A stretch of DNA of 64,000 nt, taken from contig CALVZK010000002.1 in the NCBI GenBank assembly GCA_944372505.1, forward strand, positions 44,692 to 108,691, given 5' to 3'. Positions 1,249 through 58,951 of this stretch are shown here, piece after piece. Every line of letters begins with the position of its first letter. Position 1 is the first letter of the stretch. Source of the stretch: an uncultured Clostridia bacterium (lineage in GTDB: Bacteria > Bacillota > Clostridia > Christensenellales > UBA1242). The notes under the pieces were generated by a model. It did no database searches and was not told the DNA's origin. It was given only the letters and a program-made list of their open reading frames with translations. Made by a program: the position numbers and the translations under genes.

Positions 1249-2083
1249 AATCTTTTGAAAAGTAACCAAAACCATAACATTTTGCACCAACATGAGAGCC
1301 CACGACACAACCAATTTCTCCAATTACTATCTCTTGATCTTTTTTAAGAACGGGTTTAATTTTTTCTATTAGTCGTTGTGCAGAGTCCAAAGCATCAGAA
1401 TGAACTATGTATAACGGATGATTTTCGTCCATTTTAGTTAATTTACTTAATAAAAATGATTCTGCTTTCAATGTTCCCATACATTTTGCAATATTTAATA
1501 CTTTTCCTTGTTCTATAGATACTATAGGTTTTACACTTAACATTGAGCCTATAACAGCACTAGTTGAAGATAACCTTCCGCTATTTTTTAAATATTTTAG
1601 ATCATTTATGATTGCATATACATGAATGTTTTTTCTTAGTCTATAAAATTCTTCTTTGATTTTTTCTATATTCTGTTCTTTTTCTATAAATTTGCATAAT
1701 TCAATTATGATTGCGCCTTGCCCTAATGTTGTAGATGCACTTTCTTCAATAAAGACATTCTTCATACCTAGACTATCAGCTGCCATTTGTGCTTGTAATT
1801 TTGTGGTACTCATTTCCATAGAAATTAAAATTGTAATTATAAAAACATCTTCTTTATTTACATATGGTCTATAAAAATTTTCAAACTTATATGCATTAGG
1901 CATTGCTGTTTTAGGAATGATTCCTGTTTCTTGCATTTTTTTATAAAATTCTCTTGTTGGTAAACCTTCTGGATAAAGTTCTTCTCCGAACATAACTTCT
2001 ATAGGAATTATAGTTATATCATATTTTTCCATATATTCTTGTGGAATATCACAAGATGCGTCCGCTACTATTTTAAATTTCAT
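1247..2083 (-). CDS. DegV family fatty-acid-binding protein
   Basis: 278 aa. The N-terminal MKFKIVADASCDIP and overall length and pattern are typical of DegV/EDD-fold proteins. Confidence 0.85.
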   Translation of the reverse strand: MKFKIVADASCDIPQEYMEKYDITIIPIEVMFGEELYPEGLPTREFYKKMQETGIIPKTAMPNAYKFENFYRPYVNKEDVFIITILISMEMSTTKLQAQMAADSLGMKNVFIEESASTTLGQGAIIIELCKFIEKEQNIEKIKEEFYRLRKNIHVYAIINDLKYLKNSGRLSSTSAVIGSMLSVKPIVSIEQGKVLNIAKCMGTLKAESFLLSKLTKMDENHPLYIVHSDALDSAQRLIEKIKPVLKKDQEIVIGEIGCVVGSHVGAKCYGFGYFSKD

Positions 2084-2314: not shown

Positions 2315-2701
2315 ATGGATAATTATAATGAAATTTTAGTTGAAGAAAAACTAACTATTTATCTAATGGTTTTAAAAATTACTCCAAATTTGAAGGGCTA
2401 TGACCTAATAAAAGAGGGGGTAAGAAAAATTTTACAGGACCCTTCTAAAAAGCATAATGTTAATCAAAGATTATATTTAGAACTTGCAAATATTTTTAAT
2501 TTTGATATGGATCTTGTTGATAGGGCCATGAGGAATGCGATAGAGGTTAGTTTTAAAAGAGGGGGAATTGAAGATTTTGAAAGAACTTTTAAAATTGATT
2601 TTACCTCATCAAAGCCTTCACCTAGAGAGCTTATTTGTATTTTATCGGAAAAAATTATGTTAGATAAAAACATCGCAAAAAGGAGCTTTGTTTCTGCTTA
2701 A
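2315..2701 (+). CDS. Standalone Spo0A C-terminal (DNA-binding effector) domain-like protein, no receiver domain
   Basis: 128 aa. NLKGY, RAMRNAIEVSFKRGGIE and KPSPRELICILSEKI align by eye with B. subtilis Spo0A HIKGY, RAIRHAIEVAWSRGNID and KPTNSEFIAMVADKL. Confidence 0.8.
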   Translation: MDNYNEILVEEKLTIYLMVLKITPNLKGYDLIKEGVRKILQDPSKKHNVNQRLYLELANIFNFDMDLVDRAMRNAIEVSFKRGGIEDFERTFKIDFTSSKPSPRELICILSEKIMLDKNIAKRSFVSA

Positions 2702-2725
2702 TTATTGTTTTAACGTATTTCAATA

Positions 2726-3097
2726 TTAAGATAATTTATTAATAATGGTTGCTTCTGCTTTTTCAAGTCTTCTAAAATAAGTTCTTAATGATAAATTTAA
2801 GTTATCTGCTATCGATTCGGCAGAAAAGTTTTTAATGTATTTTTGTATTAAAATTGCTCTAAATGTTTTATCAATATTTTTTAATATTTTATCCATTTTT
2901 ATTTTAAAATTTATTAATTTGTTTTTTCTTTCTATTAATTTAATAATTTTATTATAACTTTCCTCTGTTGTTATATAATTATTGATAGAATAATAATAAG
3001 AATTTAATGCTTCACTTAAAATTAACTTATCATAACTTTTGGTTAAACTATAACTATATTTATATGCTTTAAAAACATCTTCTATATTTAATTTCAT
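2726..3097 (-). CDS. Phage-type sigma-70 region-4-like HTH regulator (ArpU/RinA/DUF1492-like), paralogue A
   Basis: 123 aa. The C-terminal ILIQKYIKNFSAESIADNLNLSLRTYFRRLEKAEATIINKL resembles a region-4 HTH. Clear paralogue of the 6532..7041 product (shared LI.RK.KLIN.K, ILI.KYI, S.RTYFRRL). Confidence 0.45.
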   Translation of the reverse strand: MKLNIEDVFKAYKYSYSLTKSYDKLILSEALNSYYYSINNYITTEESYNKIIKLIERKNKLINFKIKMDKILKNIDKTFRAILIQKYIKNFSAESIADNLNLSLRTYFRRLEKAEATIINKLS

Positions 3098-3107
3098 TTT
3101 CTCTCCT

Positions 3108-3139
3108 TTTAAAAATAAAAAAGGTCCCGTAGCCGGGAC
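3108..3139 (-). terminator. Rho-independent terminator (second of a tandem pair)
   Basis: Minus-strand GTCCCG-GCTA-CGGGAC hairpin followed by CTTTTTTATTTTT. Confidence 0.65.
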
Positions 3140-3192
3140 AATAAAAAACCCAGCATTCTAAATCATTTTTTTTTGATTTGGAACGCTGGGTT
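3140..3192 (-). terminator. Rho-independent terminator (first of a tandem pair)
   Basis: Minus-strand AACCCAGC ... GCTGGGTT stem with an inner AAATCA/TGATTT hairpin, followed by TTTTTATT. Confidence 0.55.
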
Positions 3193-3196
3193 CGCT

Positions 3197-3385
3197 TTAA
3201 TCTATGAATTCCATAAGTATATAAATTTCATTTTTACATTTTAAACATTTCATATCGTGTATAAAATGTTTCTTTTTTATATGTTCAGGTGGCTTAATAA
3301 GTATTCTACAGGTGGCTTGTTCATTTGAAGTTATACACTCTCCAAGACATCTGCCACAGTGAGGACAAAACAATTTTATGTTCAC
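3197..3385 (-). CDS. Small zinc-ribbon protein, Com-like
   Basis: 62 aa with CPHC (aa 7-10) and CLKC (aa 47-50). Size and Cys spacing resemble Mu Com-type zinc ribbons. 11 nt downstream of lexA. Confidence 0.45.
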   Translation of the reverse strand: MNIKLFCPHCGRCLGECITSNEQATCRILIKPPEHIKKKHFIHDMKCLKCKNEIYILMEFID

Positions 3386-3396
3386 TATATATCTCC

Positions 3397-3987
3397 TTAA
3401 AAACGATGAATATAACTTTGCACTATTCCTAATATTTGAATGTTTTCACTTATTATATCTTTATATTTTGGATTTTCAGGATGTAAATATATTTTGCTAC
3501 CATTCTTTTTTAATCTTTTAACAGTTGCGTTTTCTTCTATTAGTGCTACTACTATTTGACCATTCTCTGCTTCGGCTGATCGGCGTACAACTAAGATATC
3601 TCCATCTCTAATTCCGGCATTTTCCATACTGTCACCAATCGCTGTCAACATGAACAATTCGCCATTTCCAAATATTTCTTTAGGAAGAGAGCATATTGTT
3701 TGATAATTTTCTTGTGCGAAAATAGGGGTCCCGCAACGTACTTGTCCTACCAACGGGGCATATGTGGTAAGACTAAGGTTACAAGACATATCAATTCCGC
3801 CGAGAGGATTTTTTTTGACATGTCCTTGTTGCTCAAGTAAAGATATATAACGATTAACCTGTGATAAACTATTTAGATTTAATTTATCCTTGATACATCT
3901 AAAAGTTGGACTTTTTCCATTTTTAATTTGATAGTTATCAATGAATTCTTTTATTTGTAATAAAAGACTTTGGTTAATGTTTTTCAT
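3397..3987 (-). CDS. lexA: LexA repressor (S24 peptidase)
   Basis: 196 aa. N-terminal winged-helix pattern, AIGDSM (Ser nucleophile), ATVKRL (Lys), and linker PLVGQVRCGTPIFAQE where LexA normally has V-A-A-G. Confidence 0.85.
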   Translation of the reverse strand: MKNINQSLLLQIKEFIDNYQIKNGKSPTFRCIKDKLNLNSLSQVNRYISLLEQQGHVKKNPLGGIDMSCNLSLTTYAPLVGQVRCGTPIFAQENYQTICSLPKEIFGNGELFMLTAIGDSMENAGIRDGDILVVRRSAEAENGQIVVALIEENATVKRLKKNGSKIYLHPENPKYKDIISENIQILGIVQSYIHRF

Positions 3988-4154: not shown

Positions 4155-4212
4155 ACTAAATTGTATAAATAAATTTTAAGTTGTTTAGATGCTTGAAAAT
4201 TTGGAGGAATTT

Positions 4213-5811
4213 ATGAAAAAAAATATTTTAATTGGAGGCGCTTGGCCATATGCAAACAACTCTCTTCATGTAGGACATTTAGCAGCCTTATTGCCTGGAG
4301 ATGTAATTGCTCGTTATTATAGAGCTAAAGGAGATAATGTTGTTTATGTCTCTGGAACAGATAGCCATGGGACACCTATTACTGTCAGAGCAAAGAAAGA
4401 AAAAATTTCTCCTGAAGTTATTGCCAATAAATATCATGATGAGTTTGTGAAAAATTTTAATGATCTTGATTTTTCTTACGATCTTTATACATCTACTATG
4501 ACAACTTATCATAAAGAACATGTACAAAAGTATTTGAGAAAGATTTATGAAAATGGATTCATTTATAAAAAAACTGAAGAACAAGATTATTGTCCTAACT
4601 GTAATCAATTTTTATCAGATAGAGAAATTATTGGAACTTGTCCACATTGCGGAGGAGAAGCAAAAGGGGATCAATGTGAAAATTGCTTAACAACCTTAAA
4701 CGCTAAAGAAGTTTTAAATAAAAGATGTAGTGTTTGTGGTACTAATACAATTCAAAAAGAAAATACACATCTTTATTTTAAATTGTCTGCTTTTCAAGAT
4801 AAGGTAAAAAAACTTGTTGACAGTCATAAAAATATTTGGCGTCTTAATGCTGTAAAAGAGTCTGAAAAATTTCTATCTCAAGGTCTTTTAGATAGAGCAT
4901 TAACAAGACAGTTAGATTGGGGGGTTGAGGTACCTTTTGATGGATTTGATGACAAAAGAGTTTATGTATGGTTTGAAGCTGTAATGGGATATGTTACTAC
5001 TGCCTGTCGAGTTCTTGAGGATAGGGGAATAAACTTTGAAGAATTTATGAAGGATAAAAATACCATTTCTTATTACTGTCATGGGAAAGATAATATTCCA
5101 TTTCATACTATTATTTATCCATCTTTACTTATGGCAATCGATGAGGAACTCAATTTACCAAACTTTATTATATCGTGTGAATATGTAAATATGAACAATG
5201 AAAAAATGTCAAAAAGCAAGGGAAATCTTATCAGTATAAATGAACTTGTGTCCCTTTATCCAAAAGATTCAATAAGGTTATTCATGATAGCAAATGGTCC
5301 TGAAACTAAAGATATAAATTTTTCTTCAGAAGATTTTAAGTTGATACACAATAAATATCTTGTAGGAGTAATTGGTAACTTTATAAATAGAAATTTATCG
5401 TTCTTGAACAAAAAGTTTTCTGGTAAAATTTGTGAAGGAAAAATAGATAATGATATTATTTCTCTTACTAAAGAAACATACGAAAATGTTGGAAAACAAA
5501 TAGAAGAGGGGAGACTTAAAAGTGCAATTAACATTGCTATAGATTATGTGAACGCAGGAAATAAATTTTATAGTGAACAAATGCCTTGGGTTCAGGTGCA
5601 AGAAAATATTGAAGCTTTCAATAATACCACATATACTTGTGTATATATGATGGCAAATATAGCAAGAATTTTTAGTCCATTTATTCCTGATACTTGTAAA
5701 AGAATTAATGAAAAACTAGGACTTGAAAACAATTGTATTTGGGAAGAAATAAATATTGAAGGTGATTTACAAGTGCAAAATGATGAACTCCTCTTTCAAA
5801 GATTACAATAA
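4213..5811 (+). CDS. metG: Methionine--tRNA ligase
   Basis: WPYANNSLHVGH (HIGH-type), zinc knuckles CPNC/CPHC/CENC/CSVC, KMSKSKGN. Start moved to the ATG at 4213, which has a GGAGG RBS. Confidence 0.95.
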   Translation: MKKNILIGGAWPYANNSLHVGHLAALLPGDVIARYYRAKGDNVVYVSGTDSHGTPITVRAKKEKISPEVIANKYHDEFVKNFNDLDFSYDLYTSTMTTYHKEHVQKYLRKIYENGFIYKKTEEQDYCPNCNQFLSDREIIGTCPHCGGEAKGDQCENCLTTLNAKEVLNKRCSVCGTNTIQKENTHLYFKLSAFQDKVKKLVDSHKNIWRLNAVKESEKFLSQGLLDRALTRQLDWGVEVPFDGFDDKRVYVWFEAVMGYVTTACRVLEDRGINFEEFMKDKNTISYYCHGKDNIPFHTIIYPSLLMAIDEELNLPNFIISCEYVNMNNEKMSKSKGNLISINELVSLYPKDSIRLFMIANGPETKDINFSSEDFKLIHNKYLVGVIGNFINRNLSFLNKKFSGKICEGKIDNDIISLTKETYENVGKQIEEGRLKSAINIAIDYVNAGNKFYSEQMPWVQVQENIEAFNNTTYTCVYMMANIARIFSPFIPDTCKRINEKLGLENNCIWEEINIEGDLQVQNDELLFQRLQ

Positions 5812-5836
5812 AAGACGAATATATTCGTCTTTTTTA
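5811..5836. terminator. Bidirectional terminator after metG
   Basis: AGACGAATATATTCGTCT palindrome flanked by A- and T-runs. Confidence 0.7.
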
Positions 5837-5847
5837 TATTTTAATTT

Positions 5848-6018
5848 TGGTGCTGGTGGTGGGAGTCGAACCCACATGAAGTTGCCTTCGAGGGGGCGAC
5901 GCGTAAAAAAAAAGACCTGTTATGGTCGTTTTTAGCCAAAGCCGGGAGCGACTTGTTCGCGGTCTGGCTCCGACAGGAGTTGATGTCCCAAGGGACTCAA
6001 AATCCTTTAATTTATCTT
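5848..6018 (-). repeat. tRNA-Leu-associated tandem unit 1 (171 nt)
   Basis: 5848-5894 repeats the last 47 nt of tRNA-Leu (anticodon-stem 3' strand through CCA). 5895-5990 is GC-rich. 5989-6005 is an inverted 17-nt copy of the tRNA anticodon arm. Confidence 0.9.
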
Positions 6019-6188
6019 TGGTGCTGGTGGTGGGAGTCGAACCCACATGAAGTTGCCTTCGAGGGGGCGACGCGTAAAAAAAAGACCTGTTATGGTCGTT
6101 TTTAGCCAAAGCCGGGAGCGACTTGTTCGCGGTCTGGTTCCGACAGGAGTTGATGTCCCAAGGGACTCAAAATCCTTTAATTTATCTT
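6019..6188 (-). repeat. tRNA-Leu-associated tandem unit 2 (170 nt)
   Basis: Near-identical to unit 1. Differences seen: A8 versus A9 run, and C5968 versus T6138. Confidence 0.9.
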
Positions 6189-6274
6189 TGGTGCTGGTGG
6201 TGGGAGTCGAACCCACATGAAGTTGCCTTCGAGGGATTTTGAGTCCCTTGCGTCTGCCATTTCGCCACACCAGC
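6189..6274 (-). tRNA. tRNA-Leu (anticodon CAA), CCA encoded
   Basis: Reverse complement reads GCTGGTG-TG-GCGAAATGGCAGACGC-A-AGGGA-CTCAAAA-TCCCT-long variable arm-GTGGGTTCGACTCCCAC-CACCAGC-A-CCA, a class II cloverleaf. Confidence 0.9.
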
Positions 6275-6428
6275 ATTTTCATAATTTTTATTCTAACATA
6301 TTTCGTTTTTATTTTCAACTTTTATTTTGATTTTGTTTATATTTTTTCATTTTTTGATGTTTGCAATTTGGTTTTACTTTTCGTGATTTTCTTTTTTGTA
6401 TTTAAAAAAATTTAAAAAAAATGTCGTA

Positions 6429-6450: not shown

Positions 6451-6531
6451 ATATTCAAAATTGTGGCAGTATCATTTGACTGCATGCTTTTTATAATTTT
6501 ATAATTCGTGTATGTACAAAGGAGAAATTAT

Positions 6532-7041
6532 ATGAAAGAAAATTTTTGGTTCAAAACTATTTTATTTGTTTACAAGTATTTAGACAATCTTGCTGAGGCC
6601 ATTGATAATTTAGTTGAAAGACAGGCTTTAAACTCATTTTATTATTTTTCTGGTTCTAGTCAGGATAATTCAGTTATGGCTGTAAGCGATAGAATTATTA
6701 ATTTGATTGATAGGAAAAAAAAGTTAATTAATATAAAAGTTTTAGTAAGCAAATGTTTGCGTAAATGTGACAAAGAATTTGCTCAAATATTAATAGAAAA
6801 ATACATAGATAATGATAAAAGTGAAGATATTGCTTTAAGACATAATCTTTCTATGAGAACATATTTTAGAAGACTTATTCAGGCAGAAGAACAATTTGCT
6901 TCTAAAGCTTGTGAGTTAGGATTTAATGAATCTCGTCTTAACATTTTGCTAGCTAATGAAAAATGGATTAAGGAAGTATACAATTCTTTTTTAAATAAAA
7001 ATCTAAATTGTATCAATGAAAAGCAAAGTTTTGTTGCCTAA
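6532..7041 (+). CDS. Phage-type sigma-70 region-4-like HTH regulator, paralogue B
   Basis: 169 aa from the ATG with an AGGAG RBS. ILIEKYIDNDKSEDIALRHNLSMRTYFRRLIQAEEQF. Paralogue of the 2726..3097 product. Confidence 0.45.
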   Translation: MKENFWFKTILFVYKYLDNLAEAIDNLVERQALNSFYYFSGSSQDNSVMAVSDRIINLIDRKKKLINIKVLVSKCLRKCDKEFAQILIEKYIDNDKSEDIALRHNLSMRTYFRRLIQAEEQFASKACELGFNESRLNILLANEKWIKEVYNSFLNKNLNCINEKQSFVA

Positions 7042-7853
7042 TTTAAATCATTTTCGTCAAATTCAAAATAATCGCCATGTCTTTTTCTTTTTGATATTTT
7101 TGGTTTTTCGTTCAAAACTTTTTCTTTCATAAAAGAAGGTTTCATTAAAAGATAAAAGACTATTAAACATGGAAGGGTTACGCCTATTATAATAAATGTC
7201 ATTGCTACTGGTGACAAACTTGAGGGTATAGCTGATGGCGAAGTAAACGTTGGATTTGTTATTATCTCAAATGTTTCATAATTTGTTACTATTTCTGGAA
7301 GTAATAAATCGCAAAATACTGAAGACACATAACCATATATATCTTTTTCATCTGTATATTTACAATAATACCATATGTTAGACTTCTCTGGAACATATTC
7401 TCCGCCAGTTATCTCTCCATAAAATGTTATATTTTCAGTCAAGTATGGAATTGTTGTGATTTTATATTCATTTACGAATTTTGGATAATGATATATTCCT
7501 AACCCATCTGTTGAGTATACTCTAAATGAAGCTTCTGGAAATGGTTTTATTGGTGTACCATTCATGGCATTTACTTCATTTATTTTTACATATCCTTCTA
7601 AATCTTGATATTTTGCAGAATAAAATTCATCATCAATTTTATCTGTTAATATTACAAAATATGTTTTAGGAATTTCAAAAAGTTTATATTCATCTTGACT
7701 ATAGGGCAAAGAATAAAAATAAACATCATCTTGCTGTATTTTAGCATAATAAGTTTCTTTTGCTAAACTTGAAAAATTGTCATTAACACTTGCAAGAGAT
7801 ATTGCTGTAATAAATAATAATACCAACATGATTAATATTTTTAAATTTTTCAT
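7038..7853 (-). CDS. Exported, C-terminally membrane-anchored protein with two SH3b-like repeats
   Basis: Signal peptide MKNLKILIMLVLLFITAISLA. Two similar ~65-aa segments (..YFYSLP...EIPKTYFV...YSAKYQDLEGYV..; ..GIYHYP....IPYLT...WYYCKY...YGYV). TM segment MTFIIIGVTLPCLIVFYLLM. Confidence 0.4.
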   Translation of the reverse strand: MKNLKILIMLVLLFITAISLASVNDNFSSLAKETYYAKIQQDDVYFYSLPYSQDEYKLFEIPKTYFVILTDKIDDEFYSAKYQDLEGYVKINEVNAMNGTPIKPFPEASFRVYSTDGLGIYHYPKFVNEYKITTIPYLTENITFYGEITGGEYVPEKSNIWYYCKYTDEKDIYGYVSSVFCDLLLPEIVTNYETFEIITNPTFTSPSAIPSSLSPVAMTFIIIGVTLPCLIVFYLLMKPSFMKEKVLNEKPKISKRKRHGDYFEFDENDLN

Positions 7854-7938
7854 GTCTTCATTTTAAAATATAAAAATTTTTATGGTTAAAATTAAATTGT
7901 CGTAATTAGATTATTTAGGAGTTTTTTTAGCGAAAGTT

Positions 7939-9375
7939 ATGGAAGATATTACATATAAGTTAAATTTAGTAGAGAATGAAATTAAAAAAAGAAATGAAAA
8001 TGATTTTTTATCAAAGTACAATGTTGGCGACTTAATCCATAAAAAACAAATGGATTTTCATAGGTGTAACAAGAAAAATCGTTGGGTTTTTGGTGGAAAT
8101 AGAACAGGTAAAACTGAATGTGGAGCAGTCGAAACTGTTTGGCTTGCTAGAGGTATACATCCTTTTAAAAAAAATAAACCTATAAATTGTTGGGTTGTTT
8201 CCTTATCAAGACAAGTGCAACGAGACGTTGCTCAAAATAAAATTTTACATTATTTAAGAAAAGATTGGATAAAACAAATAGTTATGACCAGTGGCAGAGC
8301 GGATAGTGCTGAAGAGGGAATAATTGATTTTATTTTAGTAAAAAATGTTTTTGGAAGTATAAGTAAAATTGGTTTTAAAAGTTGTGACCAAGGGCGAGAA
8401 AAGTTTCAAGGTACGTCTTTGGATTTTGTTTGGTTTGATGAAGAGCCTCCTTATGATATTTACCAAGAGTGTCGTATGCGTGTGCTTGATAAAAAAGGAA
8501 TTATTTTTGGAACAATGACACCTTTGAAAGGATTAAGTTGGGTTTATAATGATATTTTTTTAAATAAAAATAGAGATAAAGAAATTTGGTATGAGCAAAT
8601 GGAATGGGCTGATAATCCTTTTTTAGATAAAGATGAAATTGAAGCAATGACAAAATCACTTTCTAACGAAGAATTAGAATCTAGAAGATATGGAAATTTT
8701 ATTGATAGCGGGGGGCTAGTTTATAGCGAATTCGACATTAATATTCATGTCATTGATCCTTTTGATGTTCCAAAAGAGTGGCAAGATATAATATCTATTG
8801 ATCCTGGCTTAAATAATCCTCTTTCTGCTCATTGGTATTGTCAAGATTATGATGGAAATATTTATGTAATTGCAGAGCATTTTGAAAAAGGTAAAGATGT
8901 TGCTTATCATGCTAAAAAGATAAAAGAAATATCGTCTATGCTTGACTGGCATTATACAAATGGGAAAATTGTTGCTCTTATAGATAGTGCAGCTTCTCAG
9001 CGTACTTTAGCAAGTAGCAAAAGTGTAGTAGAACTTTTTTATGATAATGATATCATAGTTAATCCAAAAGTTAATAAAGATATGTTTTCTGGGATTAATG
9101 TTGTTAAAAGATTTTTAAAAGATGGAGAAGGAAAACCTCACTTATTTATTTTTAAAAATTGCGTTAATTTAATTGAAGAATTTAAGTCTTATTGGTGGGG
9201 CGATGGAGATTTACCTATAAAAAAAGATGACCATTGTTTAGATGAAATGAGATATTACTTAATGACTAAGACACTTCCATTGATTTCATGTAAAACAAAA
9301 AAATCTGAAATTCAATTAGATAAAGAAAAATTAATAAAAAAATTAAATGATAGAAGAAGGAGATTTTATCCTTAA
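7939..9375 (+). CDS. terL: Phage terminase large subunit (orphan)
   Basis: Walker A FGGNRTGKTE, Walker B LDFVWFDEEPP, ADNPFL, nuclease-domain motifs ISIDPG, LIDSAA, DDHCLDEMRYY. Confidence 0.85.
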   Translation: MEDITYKLNLVENEIKKRNENDFLSKYNVGDLIHKKQMDFHRCNKKNRWVFGGNRTGKTECGAVETVWLARGIHPFKKNKPINCWVVSLSRQVQRDVAQNKILHYLRKDWIKQIVMTSGRADSAEEGIIDFILVKNVFGSISKIGFKSCDQGREKFQGTSLDFVWFDEEPPYDIYQECRMRVLDKKGIIFGTMTPLKGLSWVYNDIFLNKNRDKEIWYEQMEWADNPFLDKDEIEAMTKSLSNEELESRRYGNFIDSGGLVYSEFDINIHVIDPFDVPKEWQDIISIDPGLNNPLSAHWYCQDYDGNIYVIAEHFEKGKDVAYHAKKIKEISSMLDWHYTNGKIVALIDSAASQRTLASSKSVVELFYDNDIIVNPKVNKDMFSGINVVKRFLKDGEGKPHLFIFKNCVNLIEEFKSYWWGDGDLPIKKDDHCLDEMRYYLMTKTLPLISCKTKKSEIQLDKEKLIKKLNDRRRRFYP

Positions 9376-9475
9376 AATAAAATATTTTGCAAATTATTTG
9401 GAAAAATAATATTTATATGTTAAATTTAATATATAGTAAAATTTAATTTAAAATTTCTTAATTTTAAGGAGAGAA

Positions 9476-11761
9476 ATGAAGAAAATTATCTTTTCGATTT
9501 TAGCAATTGTTTTATTGTTTGGAGTTGGTATTACGACATCTGACTTTATATCTTTTGCTGAAGATGAATCTCAAGAACAAGTTATAAATGTTTATGATAC
9601 AGATGAATTTATTAGTATTTTTTCTAATGAAATGTATGAAAGTGAAAATTTAATTATAAAATTAAAAGAGGATTTAGATTTTTCCGGAATTGACTTATCT
9701 GACATATATAAGTCAAATAAAGTTTTTAAAGGGCAATTTGATGGTAATGGCCATATTATTTCTAATCTGACATTAACTTCGCAAAATAACTATTATGGGC
9801 TCATTCCACGTGCTAACGGAGCTGTAATTAAAGATTTAAAAGTCTGTGGAAATATTAATTTTCAATTGCAAGAAAATAATCAACAAAAATACATAGGTGT
9901 TTTAGTTGGTCAAGGAGAAAATGTAAAAATATACAATTGTGAATTTGATAATGTGAGTTTAGACGGACAAAATGTTGATAATATTAATTTAAATATTACT
10001 TCAAATATTGTTTTTGGTGGTATCATTGGTAGCGTAAAGTCTTCTATTTCTTCTTCAACACAACAAAGCATAATTAGTGATTGCGTCTTTTATTATGATT
10101 TGAATTTTAATTTTAAATATGATACTTTGGCTTATTTAGGAGGATTAGTAGGCGAACTACAAGCAGGAAGTAAAATTAAAAATTGTCTCAATTTTGGGGA
10201 TATTACTATAAATGAAGAAAATTCTTTAGTCTCTGTTTATAATTCTCAATTTGTAGGTGGTATTATAGGGGATGCTGTCTCTGCAAATTGTGTTAATAAT
10301 TGTTTTGCTGGTATCATAACAATTAATATTAATGTTCTTTCAAATTTATCTTTTGGGGCTATAATAGGGAATTTATCAAATACAAATTCATATTTATCTA
10401 GTTGTTATTGGACTCAAAGCGATTTAGCGGGGATTGGACAAGGAGAAAATGTAAATGATAATTTTAAATTAGTAAATGCTATTAATTCAGAATTTTTAAC
10501 AAACTATAATAATTTTGATATTATCGAATTGTCCTTTGATTTTGATACCATTTGGTGTTTAAGAAATAGTAAAATTTGTCTTCAAAGATTTCAATCTTTT
10601 AATTACTCAATAAATAAAATATTAGATAATGCAGGTATATTAAAGTCAGCAATTATTAAAACTAGTGAAGATGATGAAGGACAATTGAATAGTACGGTAA
10701 ATTATGGGGCTCCTTTAATAATCAGAATTGAATATAATGATCAATATATTGGATATTATACACTAGGCACAATTTATCTTCAAGGAGAAAGTTTAAATAA
10801 ATCTTATTATTCTTATCAACCTATTTTAGATGAAAAAAACAATGTTAAGGGTTATGATATTTATCTAACAGTTAATGATGTAACAGATGGAACATATAGT
10901 TTCTCTTTAGTGGCATCAAGTTATAAATGTTTAGTAAAAATATCTGACGAGGCTAAATTAAATTCACAGGGTGGAGTTAGTGCAGGTAGTAATTATATTG
11001 AATCTTTGAATATTGATTTCACTTATCAAACAAGAACTCAAGTTATTTCTGCCCAAGGAAATGGAATTTATACTTTTTCTTATTGGGAATTGTATTACAA
11101 GGCAGAAGATGATGCAGAAGGAGAGTATACAATATTAAATGAAGATTTTGAAGATGCTAATAGTAGTTCTTTATCTATAAGTTTTGGAGTGTCTCCTTAT
11201 AATCGAGAATTTATGTTAATAGCATATTTCTCTAGTGAAAATGCTATACTTGTTGATTTTACAAATTATCAAAATGAGGGAATTAAGAGTATTTCTCTTA
11301 ATGATAAAGTTTATGAAGGACAATCAATTGCAGTTTCAAATACTGATACAACTGTAAGAATTAAATTAATAACTAATTCATATTATTTGTTAAATGTGGA
11401 ACTATTTTTGCAAAGTGTTGCTGACCTTTATGGACAAAACATTGAAGATTTAGGTATTGTTCAAACTTCAGATCCTATAACAGACGAATTAACTCATGAA
11501 ACAACCTATAACTTTAGATTGAATATGAATACAATAAAAAATATAGAAGATAATCTTTTATCTATTTCTTTTGTGGTAGAAAAAGACAACACGCAATATA
11601 ATCAAAAAATGCTTTTTGTCTATATATTTGTTCCTATCGGTGTAGCAATAGTACTTGGGGTTGGCATTTATTTAATTATCAAATTTACTCGTGGCGGGAA
11701 AAAATCGTCTGCAAGAAAGGAAAAGAAAAAAGAAGATAATTACAAAGATTTTTATATTTAA
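9476..11761 (+). CDS. Large surface protein with GLUG-like repeats and C-terminal membrane anchor
   Basis: Signal peptide. FKGQFDGNGHIISNL followed by repeated G-[GL]-[IL]-[IV]-G segments (YIGVLVGQ, FGGIIGS, YLGGLVGE, FVGGIIGD, FGAIIGN). C-terminal TM plus basic tail. Confidence 0.55.
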   Translation: MKKIIFSILAIVLLFGVGITTSDFISFAEDESQEQVINVYDTDEFISIFSNEMYESENLIIKLKEDLDFSGIDLSDIYKSNKVFKGQFDGNGHIISNLTLTSQNNYYGLIPRANGAVIKDLKVCGNINFQLQENNQQKYIGVLVGQGENVKIYNCEFDNVSLDGQNVDNINLNITSNIVFGGIIGSVKSSISSSTQQSIISDCVFYYDLNFNFKYDTLAYLGGLVGELQAGSKIKNCLNFGDITINEENSLVSVYNSQFVGGIIGDAVSANCVNNCFAGIITININVLSNLSFGAIIGNLSNTNSYLSSCYWTQSDLAGIGQGENVNDNFKLVNAINSEFLTNYNNFDIIELSFDFDTIWCLRNSKICLQRFQSFNYSINKILDNAGILKSAIIKTSEDDEGQLNSTVNYGAPLIIRIEYNDQYIGYYTLGTIYLQGESLNKSYYSYQPILDEKNNVKGYDIYLTVNDVTDGTYSFSLVASSYKCLVKISDEAKLNSQGGVSAGSNYIESLNIDFTYQTRTQVISAQGNGIYTFSYWELYYKAEDDAEGEYTILNEDFEDANSSSLSISFGVSPYNREFMLIAYFSSENAILVDFTNYQNEGIKSISLNDKVYEGQSIAVSNTDTTVRIKLITNSYYLLNVELFLQSVADLYGQNIEDLGIVQTSDPITDELTHETTYNFRLNMNTIKNIEDNLLSISFVVEKDNTQYNQKMLFVYIFVPIGVAIVLGVGIYLIIKFTRGGKKSSARKEKKKEDNYKDFYI

Positions 11762-41401: not shown

Positions 41402-41612
41402 AGTAAAGCATTTAGTCAAATGCGATTTCAACGGCTGTAACAATTTAGCAAAATATAGTTTTTCTACAAAGGGTTTATTGAAAAAAGATCTTTGCTTTTG
41501 TGAAGATTGTTTAAGACAAATGTATGAAATTATTGCTAAAATGCAGAAGCCAAGATCTGTTTCTAGTCCATTCAGATTAAATAAAAGGATGAAAAAATAT
41601 GAAGAAAGATAA
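41388..41612 (+). CDS. Small Cys-containing (zinc-ribbon-like) protein in the slot where terL normally sits
   Basis: 74 aa with CDFNGC ... CFCEDC. Overlaps both neighbours by 14 nt. Confidence 0.5.
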   Translation: MEIFEVKHLVKCDFNGCNNLAKYSFSTKGLLKKDLCFCEDCLRQMYEIIAKMQKPRSVSSPFRLNKRMKKYEER

Positions 41613-43449
41613 TAACAAAATTGTTGAAGAAGTTTTAAAAGATTTTAAAGATAGAGCAGAAAAAAGAAAGAGTTTTGATCTTATCTGGCAAATTAACATG
41701 AATTTTTTGATGGGTAATCAATATTGCAATGTTGGATATGGTGGTCACCTCGAAGAAGCGGATCGTCAGTTTTTTTGGCAGGAACGCGAAGTTTATAATC
41801 ATATAGCGCCTACTTTTGATATTCGATATGCAAAATTATCAAAAATAAAGCCAGATATTAATGTTTTGCCTTCTACTAGTGATGAAAGGGATAAGCAATC
41901 TGCCAAGGTTTCAAAAAAAATTTATAAATACATTAAAAATAAATTAAAAATTGATAGTTTGGTAAATCAAGCAATCAAGTGGTCAGAAGTTTGCGGAACT
42001 GTGTTTTATAAAATCAGTTGGAATAGTGATATTGGACAAATTATAGGGATTGATGAAAGTGGTTCGAAAATAAAAAGTGGCGATGTTGAAATTAGCGTTG
42101 TCAGCCCATTTGAAATTTATCCTGATAGTAGTGTATGTGATAGTTTAAAAGCTTGTCAAAGCCTAATTCATGCAAAAGCATATACAACGGCTCAAGTTAA
42201 GCAAATGTATGGTGTTGAAGTAGAAGGGAAAAAAGTTAATACATATGCTTTAGACAGTGTAGCTGAGGGTGTTGGAGGACTCGGACTTACTGGTACTATG
42301 CCGAAAATAATTGAGAGCGTAAAAGATGACAGTGTTATTGTTGTGGAAAGATATATTCGACCTAATGCAGACTATTTAAATGGTAGATTAACAATTGTAG
42401 CTGGAGATAAATTGGTATTTGATGGAGATTTACCTTATCAATGCGGTGAAGATGGAGATAGAGATTTTCCTTTTATTAGACAAACTAGTATTGAAGAACC
42501 GGGGAGTTTTTGGGGAAGTAGTGTAGTTGAAAGACTAATACCAGTTCAAAGAGCATATAACGCTGTAAAAAACAGAAAACATGAATTTTTGAATAGACTT
42601 TCTTTGGGAGTGTTAAGTGTAGAAGATGGCTCTGTTGATTTAGATAATCTTGAAGAAGAAGGATTATGCCCTGGGAAAGTTTTAGTTTATAGACAAGGGG
42701 CAAATGAACCTAAATATTTAGAAGGAGAAAATATCCCGTCGGGATTAAATGAAGAAGAACAATTCTTGCTTGATGAATTCAATAAAATTAGTGGAGTAAA
42801 TGATTTATTAAGTTTTAGTTCTCTATCGTCAAATTTAAGTGGAACTGCTCTTGAACTAATGATATCTCAAGATGAAGCAAGATTAAATGCTCCTATTGAA
42901 AGTATTAAATGTGCAGTTAAAGATATTGCAAGTATGATTTTAAGATTATATAAACAATACGCATCGTTTCCTAGAATTGCTAAAATTGTGGGAGAAAATG
43001 GGGAAGTTGAAATGTTCTATTTCTCTTCAAATGATATTTCTAGCGAAGATATTGAACTTGAAAATATTACTGATGGGATGCAAAGTCTTTCTCAACGTAG
43101 AGATTTAATTTTTTCTTTATTAGAAAACGGAATACTTCAAAATGAAGACGGTAATTTATCTAATAGAATGAAAAGCAAAATATTAGAAATGCTTGGTATG
43201 GGGATTTGGGAGAATGCTCAAGATATTACAGATCTTCATATAAAGAAAGCAGATAAAGAAAATTTAAAATTGTTAAAAAATGAAAATGTTTCAGTTAGCG
43301 AAATTGATGAACATAAATTACACTTAAATGAACATATTGCTTTTATGCTTGGTCAAGATTATGAAAAAGCATGCAAAGATAATAAATCTTTAGAAGAAAA
43401 GTTTTTAGCACATATTCGTGAGCACAAATCAAAATTGGAGGATAAATAA
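41599..43449 (+). CDS. Putative portal protein
   Basis: 616 aa with no P-loop. Lies between the small-terminase-like and scaffold/capsid genes. Assignment rests on size and position. Confidence 0.6.
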   Translation: MKKDNNKIVEEVLKDFKDRAEKRKSFDLIWQINMNFLMGNQYCNVGYGGHLEEADRQFFWQEREVYNHIAPTFDIRYAKLSKIKPDINVLPSTSDERDKQSAKVSKKIYKYIKNKLKIDSLVNQAIKWSEVCGTVFYKISWNSDIGQIIGIDESGSKIKSGDVEISVVSPFEIYPDSSVCDSLKACQSLIHAKAYTTAQVKQMYGVEVEGKKVNTYALDSVAEGVGGLGLTGTMPKIIESVKDDSVIVVERYIRPNADYLNGRLTIVAGDKLVFDGDLPYQCGEDGDRDFPFIRQTSIEEPGSFWGSSVVERLIPVQRAYNAVKNRKHEFLNRLSLGVLSVEDGSVDLDNLEEEGLCPGKVLVYRQGANEPKYLEGENIPSGLNEEEQFLLDEFNKISGVNDLLSFSSLSSNLSGTALELMISQDEARLNAPIESIKCAVKDIASMILRLYKQYASFPRIAKIVGENGEVEMFYFSSNDISSEDIELENITDGMQSLSQRRDLIFSLLENGILQNEDGNLSNRMKSKILEMLGMGIWENAQDITDLHIKKADKENLKLLKNENVSVSEIDEHKLHLNEHIAFMLGQDYEKACKDNKSLEEKFLAHIREHKSKLEDK

Positions 43450-43451
43450 AT

Positions 43452-44138
43452 ATGGAAGAAATAAGAGAACAACCGACCATGGAACCGGCAAATGCTTTAA
43501 ACCTAGCAGAAATAGACAGTGTCGAGAGTGAGGTCGGCTCTCAAGGCGAATTTGGCAAATTCAAAAATGCAGATGCATTGTTAGAGGCCTATAACAATTT
43601 GCAGGCTGAATTTACCAGAAAGTGCCAACTGCTAAGTAATTTGCAAAAAGATAAGATGCAAGAGGAAAAATTTAGCGAAAGAGAAAATGACACATCAAAT
43701 TTCAATAATATTAATGAATTGGAAGGTGTTAATAAAAATGAAGTTTTAGATGAATCTAATAATAGTGAAATTAGCGAGAAAAATTTTGAAGAAAGCCTAC
43801 AAGCATTCCTTGATGCAAATGCCGATGCAAAAGAATTTGCAAATGAAATTAAAAATGAGTTTTCTAATGCAAAAACAAGCCCATTTGAAGATGCTTGGGC
43901 TAAGGTTGTTTTTTCTCAATTAAAGGAAGGCAAACTTAGTGACAATATGATTAATCAATATTTAATTAGTGATGAAAATATTAAAAATAAAGTTATAGAA
44001 TCATATTTAAAGAATCTTCAAAACAATAAACCACCTTTGATAATATCTTCCAGCGGGGAAAGGCTGTCACAAGTAAAACCAGACAGTCCTAAAACCCTTG
44101 CTGAAGCAAAACAAATAGTGGATAAAATGTTTAGTTAA
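43452..44138 (+). CDS. Putative scaffolding protein
   Basis: 228 aa, acidic, predicted helical. The GKFKNADALLEAYNNLQAEFTRK segment is common in phage scaffold proteins. Directly upstream of the capsid gene. Confidence 0.55.
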   Translation: MEEIREQPTMEPANALNLAEIDSVESEVGSQGEFGKFKNADALLEAYNNLQAEFTRKCQLLSNLQKDKMQEEKFSERENDTSNFNNINELEGVNKNEVLDESNNSEISEKNFEESLQAFLDANADAKEFANEIKNEFSNAKTSPFEDAWAKVVFSQLKEGKLSDNMINQYLISDENIKNKVIESYLKNLQNNKPPLIISSSGERLSQVKPDSPKTLAEAKQIVDKMFS

Positions 44139-44487
44139 AAATAATGACATAAAATTATTTTAAAATATTGTTAAAAATATTATAAAGTTTAGAAATTTTA
44201 TTAAAAAATAAAATATTAAAGAAATTAAAATAAAAAATGTAAAAATTAAAAAAATATTTTAATTAATTAATAAAAAATAATTTTAATATTTTTTATGTTA
44301 TTTTTTAAATAAAAAAAATAATAAATTATTAATTTTGCATTATTTTTTAATTATTATAATTTTAAATATTATTTTATTTACATTTTTTGTTGAAAAATAG
44401 GTCGAATTTAATTAATTATTATTTAAATTAAAATAATTATTTAAATAAAATAAATTTTAATTTTAATGTAATTTAAAAGGAGAAAAT
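44139..44487. other. Extreme A+T spacer inside the head operon
   Basis: 349 nt with only 21 G/C by hand count (about 6% G+C). Ends with an AAAAGGAG RBS for the capsid gene. Confidence 0.9.
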
Positions 44488-45702
44488 ATGGTTACATTAC
44501 AAACAGCTGAAAATGCTTTAAAAACAGTTTATTTAGGCGTAGTTGCTAATCAACTTAATGATAATGCAAATCCTCTTCTTGCTAGAATTAAAAAAACTAG
44601 TAAAGATGTTTGGGGAAAAGAAATTAGAAAACTTGCTCCATTTGGCATAAACGGTGGAATAGGAGCAGGAAGCGAAACTGCAGCTTTGCCTATTGCTTCT
44701 GAAAATAGTTATGTACAATTCGTTGCAGATCTTAAAAACCTTTATGGTAAAATTGAAATTTCTGACAAAGCTATTAGAGCTTCTGCAAATAATATCGGGG
44801 CTTTTGTTAATCTTCTTTCTGATGAAATGGAAGGTCTTGTTAAAGCAAGTTCATTTAATCTTGGAAGAATGCTATATGGAGATGGTAGTGGTGTTTTAGC
44901 CACTGTTAATGCGCATCAAAACAAAACTATTACTTGTGATAAAGTAAATAATCTTATCGAAGGTATGCTTGTAGATATTTATAATGGTGCTACAAAAGCA
45001 AATAACTATCCAGTTAAAATAGTTTATGTTGATAGAGTAAACAAAAAATTCACTTATTCATCTTCAGAGACATTAGTTTTAAATAGTGGATTTAAAGTTT
45101 ATCTTCAAGGATCAAAAGGAAGTGAAATTTCTGGATTAGGGAAAATTTTTGATTCTTCTGCTACCAGTATTTATGGAGTTAGCAAAAGTGATTATCCTTG
45201 GTTAAATCCATATGTTAATAGTACTCAAAAAGAAATTAGTGATATTGTTATTCAAGAAGCCATTGATTTTCTTGATATGAATGTTGATTCGAAAATTAAC
45301 TTTATTACTTGTTCAAGCCAAGTAAGGAGAGTTTATCAAGAATATTTAGGAGCTTATAGAAGAAATATAGAAATTGCTTCTTTAGAGGGTGGATATAAAA
45401 CTATAACTCACAATGGAATACCTGTTGTTGCAGATAGATTTGTAGATGATGATACAATGTATTTGCTTAATACAGATGACTTTGTTTTACATCAACTTTG
45501 CGATTGGAAATGGTTAGAGGGAGAAAATGGTCAAATTTTAAGACAAAATCCAGGCTATCCAACTTATAGTGCAACACTAGTTAAATACGCAGAATTGATT
45601 TGTGATAAACCATGTGGACAAGCAAAGATTAGTGGTATCAAAGCAACAGTAACGAATCCATTTACAACAGTTGTTGAGACTACCGTAGAGGAAACAGCGT
45701 AA
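44488..45702 (+). CDS. Putative major capsid protein
   Basis: 404 aa, follows the scaffold gene, strong RBS, dedicated terminator downstream. No motif-level proof. Confidence 0.6.
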   Translation: MVTLQTAENALKTVYLGVVANQLNDNANPLLARIKKTSKDVWGKEIRKLAPFGINGGIGAGSETAALPIASENSYVQFVADLKNLYGKIEISDKAIRASANNIGAFVNLLSDEMEGLVKASSFNLGRMLYGDGSGVLATVNAHQNKTITCDKVNNLIEGMLVDIYNGATKANNYPVKIVYVDRVNKKFTYSSSETLVLNSGFKVYLQGSKGSEISGLGKIFDSSATSIYGVSKSDYPWLNPYVNSTQKEISDIVIQEAIDFLDMNVDSKINFITCSSQVRRVYQEYLGAYRRNIEIASLEGGYKTITHNGIPVVADRFVDDDTMYLLNTDDFVLHQLCDWKWLEGENGQILRQNPGYPTYSATLVKYAELICDKPCGQAKISGIKATVTNPFTTVVETTVEETA

Positions 45703-45715
45703 TAAAAAGGGAGAC

Positions 45716-45756
45716 AGGCAAAAAGCAGAGATAGTTTTTTGCCTTTTCTTCTGTTT
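45716..45756 (+). terminator. Rho-independent terminator/attenuator after the capsid gene
   Basis: AGGCAAAAA ... TTTTTGCCT 9-bp stem followed by a T-rich tract. Confidence 0.65.
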
Positions 45757-45767
45757 TTGGAGGTTAA

Positions 45768-46079
45768 ATGAGATATTTAGAGATAACTGAAGATGTATAT
45801 TTGATAGGAAAAAGATTAAAAGAAATTGATAGAAGTTACATCATTTTATACAATCTTGATAAAAAGTCTTACGAAGTACATTCTCAAGGAAGAGGTAAAG
45901 GAAGTTATTGTTTTACAGTGCCATATGATATATTAGATGCTCGAACAATAACATATGCACGAAAAACAAGTGTAGAGAGAAGGGATAAAATAATAGAGGA
46001 GATTGAAATTAACAACCAAAAACTTTACGAAAGATCAATTAAAGAGCAAGTAAATAAGATAAAGGAGGCACTATGCTAG
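45768..46079 (+). CDS. Hypothetical phage-module protein
   Basis: 103-aa ORF with a GGAGG RBS. Confidence 0.6.
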   Translation: MRYLEITEDVYLIGKRLKEIDRSYIILYNLDKKSYEVHSQGRGKGSYCFTVPYDILDARTITYARKTSVERRDKIIEEIEINNQKLYERSIKEQVNKIKEALC

Positions 46080-46621
46080 TAAAAGACATAATAAAGTTAG
46101 CATGTGAATTCATAGGGTTAGAAACGGTTAAAGCGGGGATCGAGAGTAATAACTTAACCGAAGAGGATGAATTAGTTTGTGATAGTCTAGTTAACTTATT
46201 TAATCTTATCAACGACGAGATAACTAGCGAGTATATACCAATTTATCGTAAAGAGAGAGTAAAGTGCAACGATTTTAAAGTAAATTACTCATCATTAAAA
46301 GAGGAGCCATTACAAATCATATCAGTAAAAGATATATGTGGACGGAAGATAAGATTCAAAGCGTTTGAGGATCACATTGTAGCGATAGCAAGCATGGTAG
46401 AGATAATTTATACAGTTAAATCAGAAAGATTAGAAATAGACGACGAAATTAGTTCCAGTTTACCAGAGAGGGTATATGCATATGGAATAGTAAGGGAATA
46501 TTATTTTTTACAAACAATGTTTGATGATGCAGATGTGTGGGAGGAGCGCTTTAAGAATAGTTTGCAAGTATTACAGAGGAGGAAAAGCGAGACGACAATG
46601 GCTCGAAGGAGGTGGCTTTAA
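46073..46621 (+). CDS. Hypothetical protein, possibly head-tail connector/adaptor
   Basis: 182 aa. Position after the capsid gene. GGAGG RBS. Overlaps its neighbours. Confidence 0.35.
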   Translation: MLVKDIIKLACEFIGLETVKAGIESNNLTEEDELVCDSLVNLFNLINDEITSEYIPIYRKERVKCNDFKVNYSSLKEEPLQIISVKDICGRKIRFKAFEDHIVAIASMVEIIYTVKSERLEIDDEISSSLPERVYAYGIVREYYFLQTMFDDADVWEERFKNSLQVLQRRKSETTMARRRWL

Positions 46622-58939: not shown

Positions 58940-58951
58940 AAATACTCCTTT

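Follow-up and report, generated by a model that had tools for sequence, protein, structure and literature searches.

Miniature tRNA-gene-specific elements with a target-complementary hairpin in uncultured Clostridia

The tRNA-Leu(CAA) gene in a 64-kb stretch of contig CALVZK010000002.1 from an uncultured Clostridia bacterium (the window, to which all coordinates without a locus label refer) is followed by two tandem units, which are two copies of one member of a previously undescribed family of miniature tRNA-gene-specific elements. With a probability of about 0.5, each unit is a small, protein-less and non-autonomous insertion element for tRNA genes that would depend on an enzyme encoded elsewhere and find its site by base-pairing. 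About 110 nt of each unit are conserved, the unit also including a spacer and a piece of the tRNA. The general logic of inserting in a tRNA gene while keeping that gene whole is known already. The size of the module, its lack of an enzyme, its multi-target core and its target-complementary hairpin are not known from any described family, and the literature on RNA-guided tRNA-gene integration, on protein-less derivatives of genomic islands (CIMEs) and on miniature site-specific elements yielded nothing like it.

The intact tRNA gene (6189-6274, minus strand; 86 nt with an encoded CCA) is recognized by both ARAGORN and Rfam. A putative sigma-70-like promoter, proposed by sequence (TTGAAA-17-TAGAAT with a TG), lies at 6290-6318 on the same strand, and the window shows no terminator separating the tRNA from the first unit. 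TRF delimits a tandem repeat at 5846-6235 with a period of 170 bp, 2.3 copies and 99% identity. Unit 1 occupies 6188-6019 (170 nt) and unit 2 occupies 6018-5848 (171 nt), the two differing by one A/G substitution (plus-strand T6138/C5968) and by a run of T8 versus T9. The last 47 nt of the tRNA are present in three exact copies (6189-6235, 6019-6065 and 5848-5894). The initial annotation had described this arrangement, namely an intact tRNA and two near-identical units that start 13 nt past CCA with exact antisense of the anticodon arm, contain several hairpins and close with a perfect tRNA 3′ copy; all of this agrees with the present analysis down to the coordinates. Its figure of about 60% G+C does not, as the 93-110 nt between spacer and tRNA copy measure 0.52, although this is still enriched over the window (0.288) and the flanks (0.23-0.28). 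The outer limit of the array is set by the terminator hairpin (5810-5833, plus strand) of the convergent methionyl-tRNA synthetase (MetRS) gene (4189-5811). An independent short-read contig with the same MetRS gene ends within the first repeat, as would be expected of a real tandem repeat.

In tRNA orientation, each unit is composed of a spacer, hairpin 1, hairpin 2, the core CCAGACCGCGAACAAGTCGCTCCCGGCTTTGGCTAAAAAC, an A/T-flanked hairpin, the end ACGCGTCGCC and tRNA bases 40-86. The AT spacer of 13 nt (AAGATAAATTAAA; 6176-6188 and 6006-6018, minus strand) follows CCA once per unit. It is succeeded by the arm, GGATTTTGAGTCCCTTG (6159-6175 and 5989-6005), which is the exact reverse complement of tRNA-Leu bases 25-41 (6234-6250, minus strand), a target stretch that spans the 5′ strand of the anticodon stem, the loop and the CC opening the 3′ strand. 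An extended 21-mer of the arm has 0.01 expected chance matches and three observed ones, in the two units and in the tRNA itself. Within unit 1, the arm forms the outer strand of the imperfect, 32-nt hairpin 1 (6145-6176; loop CTTG, imperfect partner GGACATCAACTCC). Hairpin 2 (6135-6149), of the form CTCC-TGTC-GGAA in this unit and generally CTCC-TGTC-GGAG in the window, has a stem that covaries across the family. Next are the conserved core (6098-6137) and the covarying hairpin GACC-ATAACA-GGTC (6076-6097), which has A and T tracts on its sides and resembles a terminator in both directions. The near-invariant element end (6066-6075) adjoins the CC of the first displaced tRNA copy (6019-6065, minus strand; 47 nt, exact). 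The module of unit 2, from the arm to GTCGCC, runs over 5895-6005 (arm 5989-6005, hairpin 2 5965-5979, core 5928-5967, hairpin 5912-5927, end 5895-5904) and leads into the second displaced copy (5848-5894, minus strand; 47 nt, exact), beyond which the flank is unrelated. Both displaced copies begin at tRNA-Leu base 40, that is, at the CC.

Homologues of the core, which the initial annotation had proposed to seek elsewhere, are plentiful. The core of about 110 nt occurs some 40 times in about 30 loci of low-GC Clostridia, drawn from metagenome-assembled genomes (MAGs) and metagenomes (labels L001-L055 denote the retrieved loci that were compared with the window). An exact 22-mer of the core is found at 10 loci in species-representative genomes of different Clostridia/Christensenellaceae MAGs, the hosts being uncultured Clostridia, one Christensenellaceae MAG, Candidatus Caccovivens and one Eggerthellaceae-labelled bin. 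This bin is probably mis-binned, since its locus is nearly identical to a Clostridiales locus. An exact 20-mer retrieved 25 metagenome loci, 18 of them real and seven chance matches inside high-GC coding DNA. A covariance model trained on 25 distinct full-length copies recognizes 39 copies in the loci first gathered and two in loci added later; the window copies score 112 and 108 bits, both having belonged to the training set. The target tRNAs are Leu-CAA, Leu-TAA, Leu-AAG, Trp, Lys-CTT, Ser-CGA and initiator Met, and the junction falls at tRNA base 40 (Leu anticodon stem), 59 (Trp T-stem), 71-75 (Leu T-stem/acceptor) or 77 (Ser). The module sits downstream of tRNA genes and not upstream of an open reading frame (ORF). 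The Rfam check suggested for the array gave no match besides the tRNA: searches at E<=10 on the array and at E<=0.1 on six other loci returned only tRNA and a sub-threshold Gut-1 match outside the module. When both units were compared with phage and plasmid collections by blastn, only the tRNA pieces were matched, and five exact patterns (arm, core, tRNA 3′ part, element end and core-hairpin junction) had no match in viral contigs.

In every case, the module has an intact tRNA on one side and, on the other, a displaced copy of the distal part of that tRNA. Directly after the invariant element end, ..TTAACGCGTCGCC (..ACGCGTCG-CC), comes a copy of the neighbouring tRNA, which begins at the CC and extends to CCA or further; every displaced copy opens with CC, against an element end of ..GTCG-CC. 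The inner edge of the repeat is always CC, and the outer edge lies at CCA or 6 to >100 nt past it, giving repeats of 12, 16, 21, 22, 27, 41, 45, 47, 53, 54 and 77 nt across the family, and of >150 nt in L008 if one interruption is allowed. Thus, the inner edge is precise and the outer edge variable, the latter being the expectation for an element-borne tRNA piece that encounters hosts whose flanks are similar to varying degrees. The repeats of L012 and L020 end precisely at CCA, and their tRNA and element are separated by a foreign terminator and spacer. Both are homologous to those of L006, L027 and L034, at another tRNA-Leu, which indicates that the terminator/spacer stretch travels with the element. 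A classical crossover in the anticodon loop or T-loop was rejected, because the repeats start past the loop and not inside it. Together, the precise junction at a shared dinucleotide, a duplicate reaching at least the gene end, a donor-type spacer on the tRNA side and tandem arrays form a geometry that points to recombination at the CC with a replacement part, as in integrating islands.

One precise and one variable junction, varying repeat lengths and donor-type spacers and terminators carried along at the tRNA-proximal end could also be produced by a non-autonomous retroelement. Here, a nick at the CC would prime the reverse transcription of a tRNA-trailer co-transcript into the tRNA gene, and a second nick at variable distance would generate duplications of variable length; in the window, the promoter and the lack of an intervening terminator are consistent with such co-transcription. 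Such an origin is nevertheless very improbable. The window encodes no reverse transcriptase, and no locus was seen to have one nearby. In many cases the repeats terminate precisely at CCA, a feature better explained by limits of homology than by random second nicks, and the structure is better conserved on the strand opposite the proposed template RNA.

The far end of the module is folded into a hairpin, and the outer arm of this hairpin matches, as reverse complement, 10-21 nt of its own neighbouring tRNA. In the Leu-CAA, Leu-TAA, Trp, Lys and Ser types, complementarity extends over 13-21 nt and has no more than one mismatch; the Leu T-arm type reaches 10 nt, and shuffled arms reach at most 9-12 nt. 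The match always includes the CC; in several T-arm copies it reaches 6-8 nt beyond the CC, with one mismatch at the first C. The arm follows differences between targets (CTCAAAA vs CTTAAAA), and its partner strand compensates (TTTTGAG/CATCAA vs TTTTAAG/CTTAA). Insertions devoid of an arm occur only inside partial or pseudo-tRNA copies. Because one core is found at many tRNAs and positions and the arm alone changes, the arm would appear to specify the site by base-pairing. An origin of the arm by snap-back or hairpin opening was considered and rejected, as it would give a palindrome centred on the junction, which is not seen.

The initial annotation observed that the single substitution between the units (C5968/T6138) preserves pairing on the plus strand only. 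This holds, the change sitting in hairpin 2 as G.U on the plus strand and C.A on the minus strand, and the same strand preference extends across the whole family. Hairpin 2 retains its TGTC loop while its stem takes the forms CTCC/GGAG, CACC/GGTG, GTCC/GGAC, GCC/GGC, GGC/GCC, CCC/GGG and GACC/GGTC, and the A/T-flanked hairpin likewise varies in step on both sides. The covariation analysis that had been called for thereby gives double changes at nine pairs in these two hairpins. In a diverged copy recovered by the covariance model (L012:30-107), CTAAC/GTTAG replaces the A and T tracts, so that the A/T-flanked hairpin is a structure and not only a terminator. Summed local energies are -435 kcal/mol on the strand antisense to the tRNA versus -348 kcal/mol on the tRNA strand, G.U pairs number 50 versus 12, and the consensus energy is -25.7 versus -18.9 kcal/mol. 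At three alignment pairs, 17, 24 and 21 of the 25 sequences have G.U, which the tRNA strand would show as A.C, and a window unit folds with a z-score of -2.17 on the plus strand and -0.90 on the minus strand. As far as sequence comparison can indicate, conservation of the structure is therefore stronger on the tRNA-antisense strand, the plus strand of the window. The folded module could act either as RNA or as single-stranded DNA. The diverged copy also adjoins CCAACTGAGCCACATCAGCA, the reverse complement of the first 20 nt of a tRNA (D-loop to 5′ end), and represents an insertion in the opposite orientation that displaces the tRNA 5′ part; the contig begins there and the remainder is missing.

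Such conserved folding raises the second idea of the initial annotation, a structured small RNA (sRNA) family co-transcribed with the tRNA or antisense to it. A host or addictive sRNA of this kind would use its arm or the antisense tRNA copy to pair with the tRNA or with its precursor and would control maturation or stability, the tRNA copies being incidental duplications. The covarying and terminator-like hairpins, the lack of a terminator from the tRNA promoter to unit 1, the 17 nt of perfect complementarity to the anticodon arm and the plus-strand z-score are all in keeping with this, and the structure and the many homologues support that part of the idea. As a purely regulatory RNA, the family would leave the displaced tRNA copies unexplained, above all why each starts at the arm-covered CC and adjoins the invariant end. 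Also unaccounted for would be presence and absence between near-identical strains and armless insertions inside pseudo-tRNA copies; the better-folding strand, moreover, has no evident promoter, and the module has no Rfam match. A regulatory role as the whole explanation is accordingly judged unlikely.

Presence, absence and copy number all differ among related loci, which speaks for mobility of the element. Contigs with one identical MetRS, itself 88% identical to that of the window, differ in whether they carry the module: L050 has an identical tRNA-Leu(CAA) with no module, L054 and L055 have the module (95.8 bits), and L052 has another tRNA at that position. The copy-number variation that the initial annotation suggested looking for in related genomes was seen, with two units in the window versus one in the syntenic L011, two in L012 versus one in L020, and two in L006, L007 and L027 versus a recombinant single copy in L015 and L016. 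In one human-gut sample, three contigs of matching read coverage carry the module at three different tRNAs, and coverage-matched contigs from single samples place it at three or four different tRNAs. The displaced copy of L011 has a window-type acceptor end, unlike the local tRNA, which indicates transfer or recombination between lineages.

Such differences bear as well on the first idea of the initial annotation, stacked attachment scars of tRNA-targeting elements. The units would then be passive, leftover attP arms of integrase islands or prophages that have lost their interior and been amplified by unequal recombination. Direct repeats of the tRNA 3′ part do flank the units, the 47-nt copies act like att-type repeats, copy-number differences (L006 vs L015 and L016) are compatible with unequal exchange, and other elements stack at the same tRNAs, such as a defence island in L022 and remnants in L019 and L029. 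The units are not, however, decayed remains of larger integrase islands. A near-identical core is found at no fewer than seven tRNA genes with junctions at bases 40, 59, 71 and 77, which an att specificity set by a protein would forbid; 0 of about 40 copies, across about 30 loci, lie in an integrase-carrying element; the module is absent from phage, plasmid and viral collections; and the compensatory changes reflect selection on folding. Passive scars are thus about as improbable as a regulatory RNA. Each of the two original ideas is partly supported and catches part of the picture, and neither is enough alone.

Under the insertion-element reading, the element would enter a tRNA gene at the CC, its target chosen by pairing of the arm, as RNA or as folded single-stranded DNA, and its invariant end and core would be acted on by an enzyme whose gene lies at another place in the genome. 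Along with the element, a duplicate of the displaced segment, in many cases accompanied by a terminator, would arrive or be left behind, and this duplication would keep the tRNA gene functional. The two copies of the window could have arisen when the regenerated site received another insertion, or when the 47-nt repeats underwent unequal exchange with each other. Several points weigh against this account. No enzyme, circular or excised form, or transcript is on record for the module. The initiator-Met copies have no complementary arm, and the 10-nt complementarity of the Leu T-arm type is near the maximum for shuffled arms; the arm could also be a by-product of insertion, an inverted copy of the target, instead of a guide. 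The evidence on strand is mixed, as three helices favour the antisense strand and an arm variant in L054 wobbles only on the tRNA-sense strand. The sole pair of empty and occupied sites (L050 vs L054) is complicated by the nesting of the element in another mini-element. Finally, the homologues were all recovered by exact 20-22-mers, so that conservation of that stretch is overstated and diverged relatives are missed.

The initiator-Met copies have an unusual setting. In L002 (4363-4690), L017 and L021, the initiator tRNA-Met region is present as tandem pseudo-copies, in each of which a degenerate 5′ half is combined with an exact 3′ part of 42 nt and a flank of 87 nt. The armless module lies inside the last of these, at the border of T-loop and T-stem.

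A search for a partner enzyme by Pfam and PHROGs revealed no recombinase, transposase, reverse transcriptase or TnpA/TnpB-like gene in the 64-kb window. These searches covered essentially all window ORFs of at least 110 aa and returned housekeeping genes and phage-like remnants. No protein is common to all loci by all-against-all BLAST of their ORFs, which returned only synteny groups. In L022, and there only, the module has a large serine recombinase (LSR) gene upstream, which belongs to a defence island and ends about 150 nt before the module; L019 and L029 keep the last 11 codons of this gene as a 33-nt remnant. Nine LSR homologues with 72-94% identity share a common boundary, ..TCCGCACCA, beyond which lies unrelated host DNA and no module. 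The LSR was therefore rejected as the enzyme of the module, and its adjacency reflects stacking at one tRNA, which also counts against scars of LSR islands. No dyad symmetry around the CC, the expectation for an LSR attachment site, is visible by inspection.

The LSR family itself lies at the edges of defence islands (L022 5650-7176, L037, L039, L041, L045, L047, L048), which carry type I restriction-modification, HEPN/Toprim and KAP NTPase genes. The last codons of the LSR gene resemble a tRNA 3′ end (..GGTTCG..TCCGCACCA), and conservation ends exactly there and is followed by a terminator, so that the CCA end of tRNA genes appears to be where these islands insert, and their attachment site would lie inside the recombinase gene.

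Islands that integrate in tRNA genes, their protein-less derivatives (CIMEs) and tandem accretion at att sites have been reviewed (PMC5704250, PMC6323972). The module resembles these in its insertion within a tRNA gene, with a copy of the distal part on both sides and the gene left intact, and resembles CIMEs in forming tandem arrays at one tRNA and in being non-autonomous, with an enzyme needed in trans. It is unlike them in measuring only about 110 nt and having no integrase-bearing relative. One core serves many tRNAs at different internal positions, whereas an island integrase fixes one sublocation, and, in contrast to attP arms, the module has a target-complementary hairpin arm and covarying, strand-asymmetric hairpins.

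Another parallel is the bridge RNA system of IS110/IS1111 elements (PMC11208160). As there, a dinucleotide is common to element end and target (CC here, CT in IS621), the target-matching segments include this core dinucleotide, and the non-coding, structured part is comparable in size (110-170 nt). Read on its better-folding strand, the module shows the polarity of the left and right target guides, with a sense left target that ends in CC and an antisense right target that ends in GG. Unlike IS110, no DEDD/Tnp recombinase is present in the window or adjoining any copy, and none recurs near the loci. A single target arm sits in an imperfect hairpin, the consensus fold comprises hairpins and not two guide loops, and no donor guide was identified. 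The 'right guide' of the module is displaced target DNA, and IS110 does not duplicate 12-100 nt of its target. With neither the recombinase nor a two-loop structure or donor guide found, the module bears a resemblance to IS110 and is not counted as a member. Extending the comparison, the module may be the nucleic-acid part of a programmable, base-pairing-guided recombination or insertion system with a separate enzyme, a general mechanism, shared by at least three unrelated cores, through which tiny elements would settle in tRNA genes and leave them unharmed; this broader proposal is possible but tentative. The arm and the tRNA copy would then specify the target around the CC core, like a bridge RNA or a folded single-strand attachment site, and the conserved core and end would serve as the handle for a trans-acting recombinase.

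Two further small GC-rich modules, termed 'W' and 'Z', have the same layout, in which an arm antisense to the target across the junction is followed by a short loop, a sense-like partner, a hairpin core and a displaced tRNA part. W, of about 70 nt, is found at the T-loop of tRNA-Leu(CAA) in L050 (7440-7510), L054 (2060-2250) and also L055, and has the arm TGGGAGTCGAAC, the partner GGTTCGCC and an AT-rich hairpin, GGGGCACCTGAAAAATCGTAAGATTTTTGGGGTCGG. It is nested with the module studied here in L054 and L055, an armless W lies in the displaced copy of L054, and in L052 (2690-2740) an armless relative splits a pseudo tRNA 5′ half at its D-loop. Z, which is GC-rich and about 100 nt long, lies in L022 about 70-190 nt past the displaced tRNA copy, on the reverse strand at roughly 5200-5340. 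It begins with GCGGGTCGAAC (T-loop antisense) and ends against GACCCCCACCACCAGCACCA, a third partial copy of the same tRNA.

Strand-specific structure also occurs in IS200/IS605 elements, for which background on non-autonomous PATEs and omega-RNAs is available (PMC10055086, PMC10690162). A PATE-like remnant of such a single-stranded DNA transposon would be moved in trans by a Y1 HUH transposase that recognizes strand-specific subterminal hairpins and inserts beside GG on the structured strand. Like PATEs, the module is short and protein-less, with hairpins near both ends, a strand-specific structure (G.T pairs 50 vs 12) and a short conserved junction motif; the invariant end lies 16-18 nt from a hairpin foot, the flank at this end always finishing in GG/CC, and a guide-like sequence is tied to the insertion site, as in this family. 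The tRNA-Leu gene and its array lie on the minus strand, and most genes and the cumulative GC skew point the opposite way, so the tRNA is probably transcribed head-on to replication. By the same GC skew and gene orientation, the better-folding window plus strand would be the lagging-strand template, in keeping with a transposon of this type. This origin is still quite unlikely, if a little less so than reverse transcription. No TnpA, TnpB or IscB domain is encoded in the window, no Rfam omega-RNA or IS605 model matches, and an arm complementary to 10-21 nt of the target is not predicted, the guide-like arm being an inverted copy inside a hairpin and not an adjacent flank. IS200/IS605 elements are not known to duplicate their target site, as opposed to the repeats of 12 to >100 nt observed here.

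Two other systems share single features with the module. The CTX phage exploits a host recombinase at dif through its attP(+) site, a folded single-strand hairpin that mimics the target. The module, too, has an imperfect, bulged hairpin that reproduces the chromosomal target duplex, has no recombinase of its own and forms tandem arrays. It differs in targeting a set of tRNA genes, in having no evident Xer-type site and in placing the hairpin about 100 nt from the junction. Group II introns recognize their target by pairing between exon-binding and intron-binding sites (EBS-IBS), and the module likewise contains an internal segment that is the complement of the target strand just upstream of the insertion site; unlike such introns, it is at 110 nt too short for six domains, has no intron-encoded protein and leaves the tRNA uninterrupted. 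A miniature inverted-repeat transposable element was rejected, as the ends GGATTTTGAG.. and ..ACGCGTCGCC form no inverted repeat and the duplication length is variable. A T-box or other known tRNA-binding RNA was rejected on account of the lack of an Rfam match and a location outside any 5′ leader.

Should the arm direct insertion, some 110 nt of nucleic acid would hold both an address and a recombination handle for an enzyme acting in trans, which would be relevant to programmable DNA insertion and would help explain why tRNA genes are hot spots of mobile DNA. On a conservative reading too, the family is an abundant, unannotated repeat of uncultured gut Clostridia that breaks short-read assemblies at tRNA genes, yields pseudo-tRNA fragments and spurious ORFs, and provides terminators to tRNA genes. 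Two mechanical ORFs of the window, 5834-6109 (91 aa) and 6007-6318 (103 aa), overlap the repeats and the tRNA. Comparable pseudo-ORFs are found in L006, L007, L016 and L027, and gene callers may label them hypothetical proteins. The two window ORFs cluster with similar ones through shared DNA only.

Further repeats were noted close to module copies. A recurrent sequence, GAGAAAAAACTGCGCTTCTGCC ... GGCGCTTGTTTTTTCTC ..CGCGACCAAGCGAAAAGCG, lies directly after CCA at several different tRNAs (L050 7560-7685, L052 2440-2515, L054 1960-2040, L008, L036 and L022) and may be yet another tRNA-associated repeat. About 40 nt past the displaced tRNA-Ser copy of L023, a region with repeated AATGATATT motifs includes the match to the Gut-1 RNA motif (1480-1549, minus strand), which at 41.8 bits (E 2e-5) is below the gathering score of 50. 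Downstream of two module copies in different contexts (L002 4870-4940, L012 195-260), the motif GGAACC.CCGATGAG.AACCTCTATCGGGAACC is conserved within complementary GTTT..AAAC and is structured-looking.

The surroundings of the array are those of an ordinary low-GC Firmicute chromosome, with MetRS, LepA, Ffh, TrmD, a DnaK operon and ComEC, along with a few phage-like remnants. A small phage-like islet 5′ of the tRNA-Leu gene (6508-11761), syntenic in L011 and partly in L050, is kept beside this tRNA in related genomes and has no integrase. Its ORFs encode a sigma/regulator-like protein (6508-7041, paralogous to 2726-3097), a 271-aa protein, the large subunit of a terminase (7939-9375) and a 761-aa protein. 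At 41599-48102, a P22-like portal (41599-43449) is followed by four ORFs with no Pfam match, amid housekeeping genes; taken together with the isolated terminase gene at 7939, it suggests dispersed remnants of a phage or a gene-transfer-agent-like set. A cluster at 2315-3987, conserved upstream of MetRS in L001 and L050, encodes a 128-aa protein composed solely of the Spo0A C-terminal DNA-binding domain, a DUF1492/sigma-70 region-4 protein and a LexA-like S24 peptidase. Lastly, a row of four minus-strand ORFs (366-390 aa), each overlapping the end of the next, occupies 56692-61181. A metallo-beta-lactamase fold is present in the first and the third, and Pfam has no match for the second and the fourth, an arrangement that looks like the tandem duplication of a two-gene unit.

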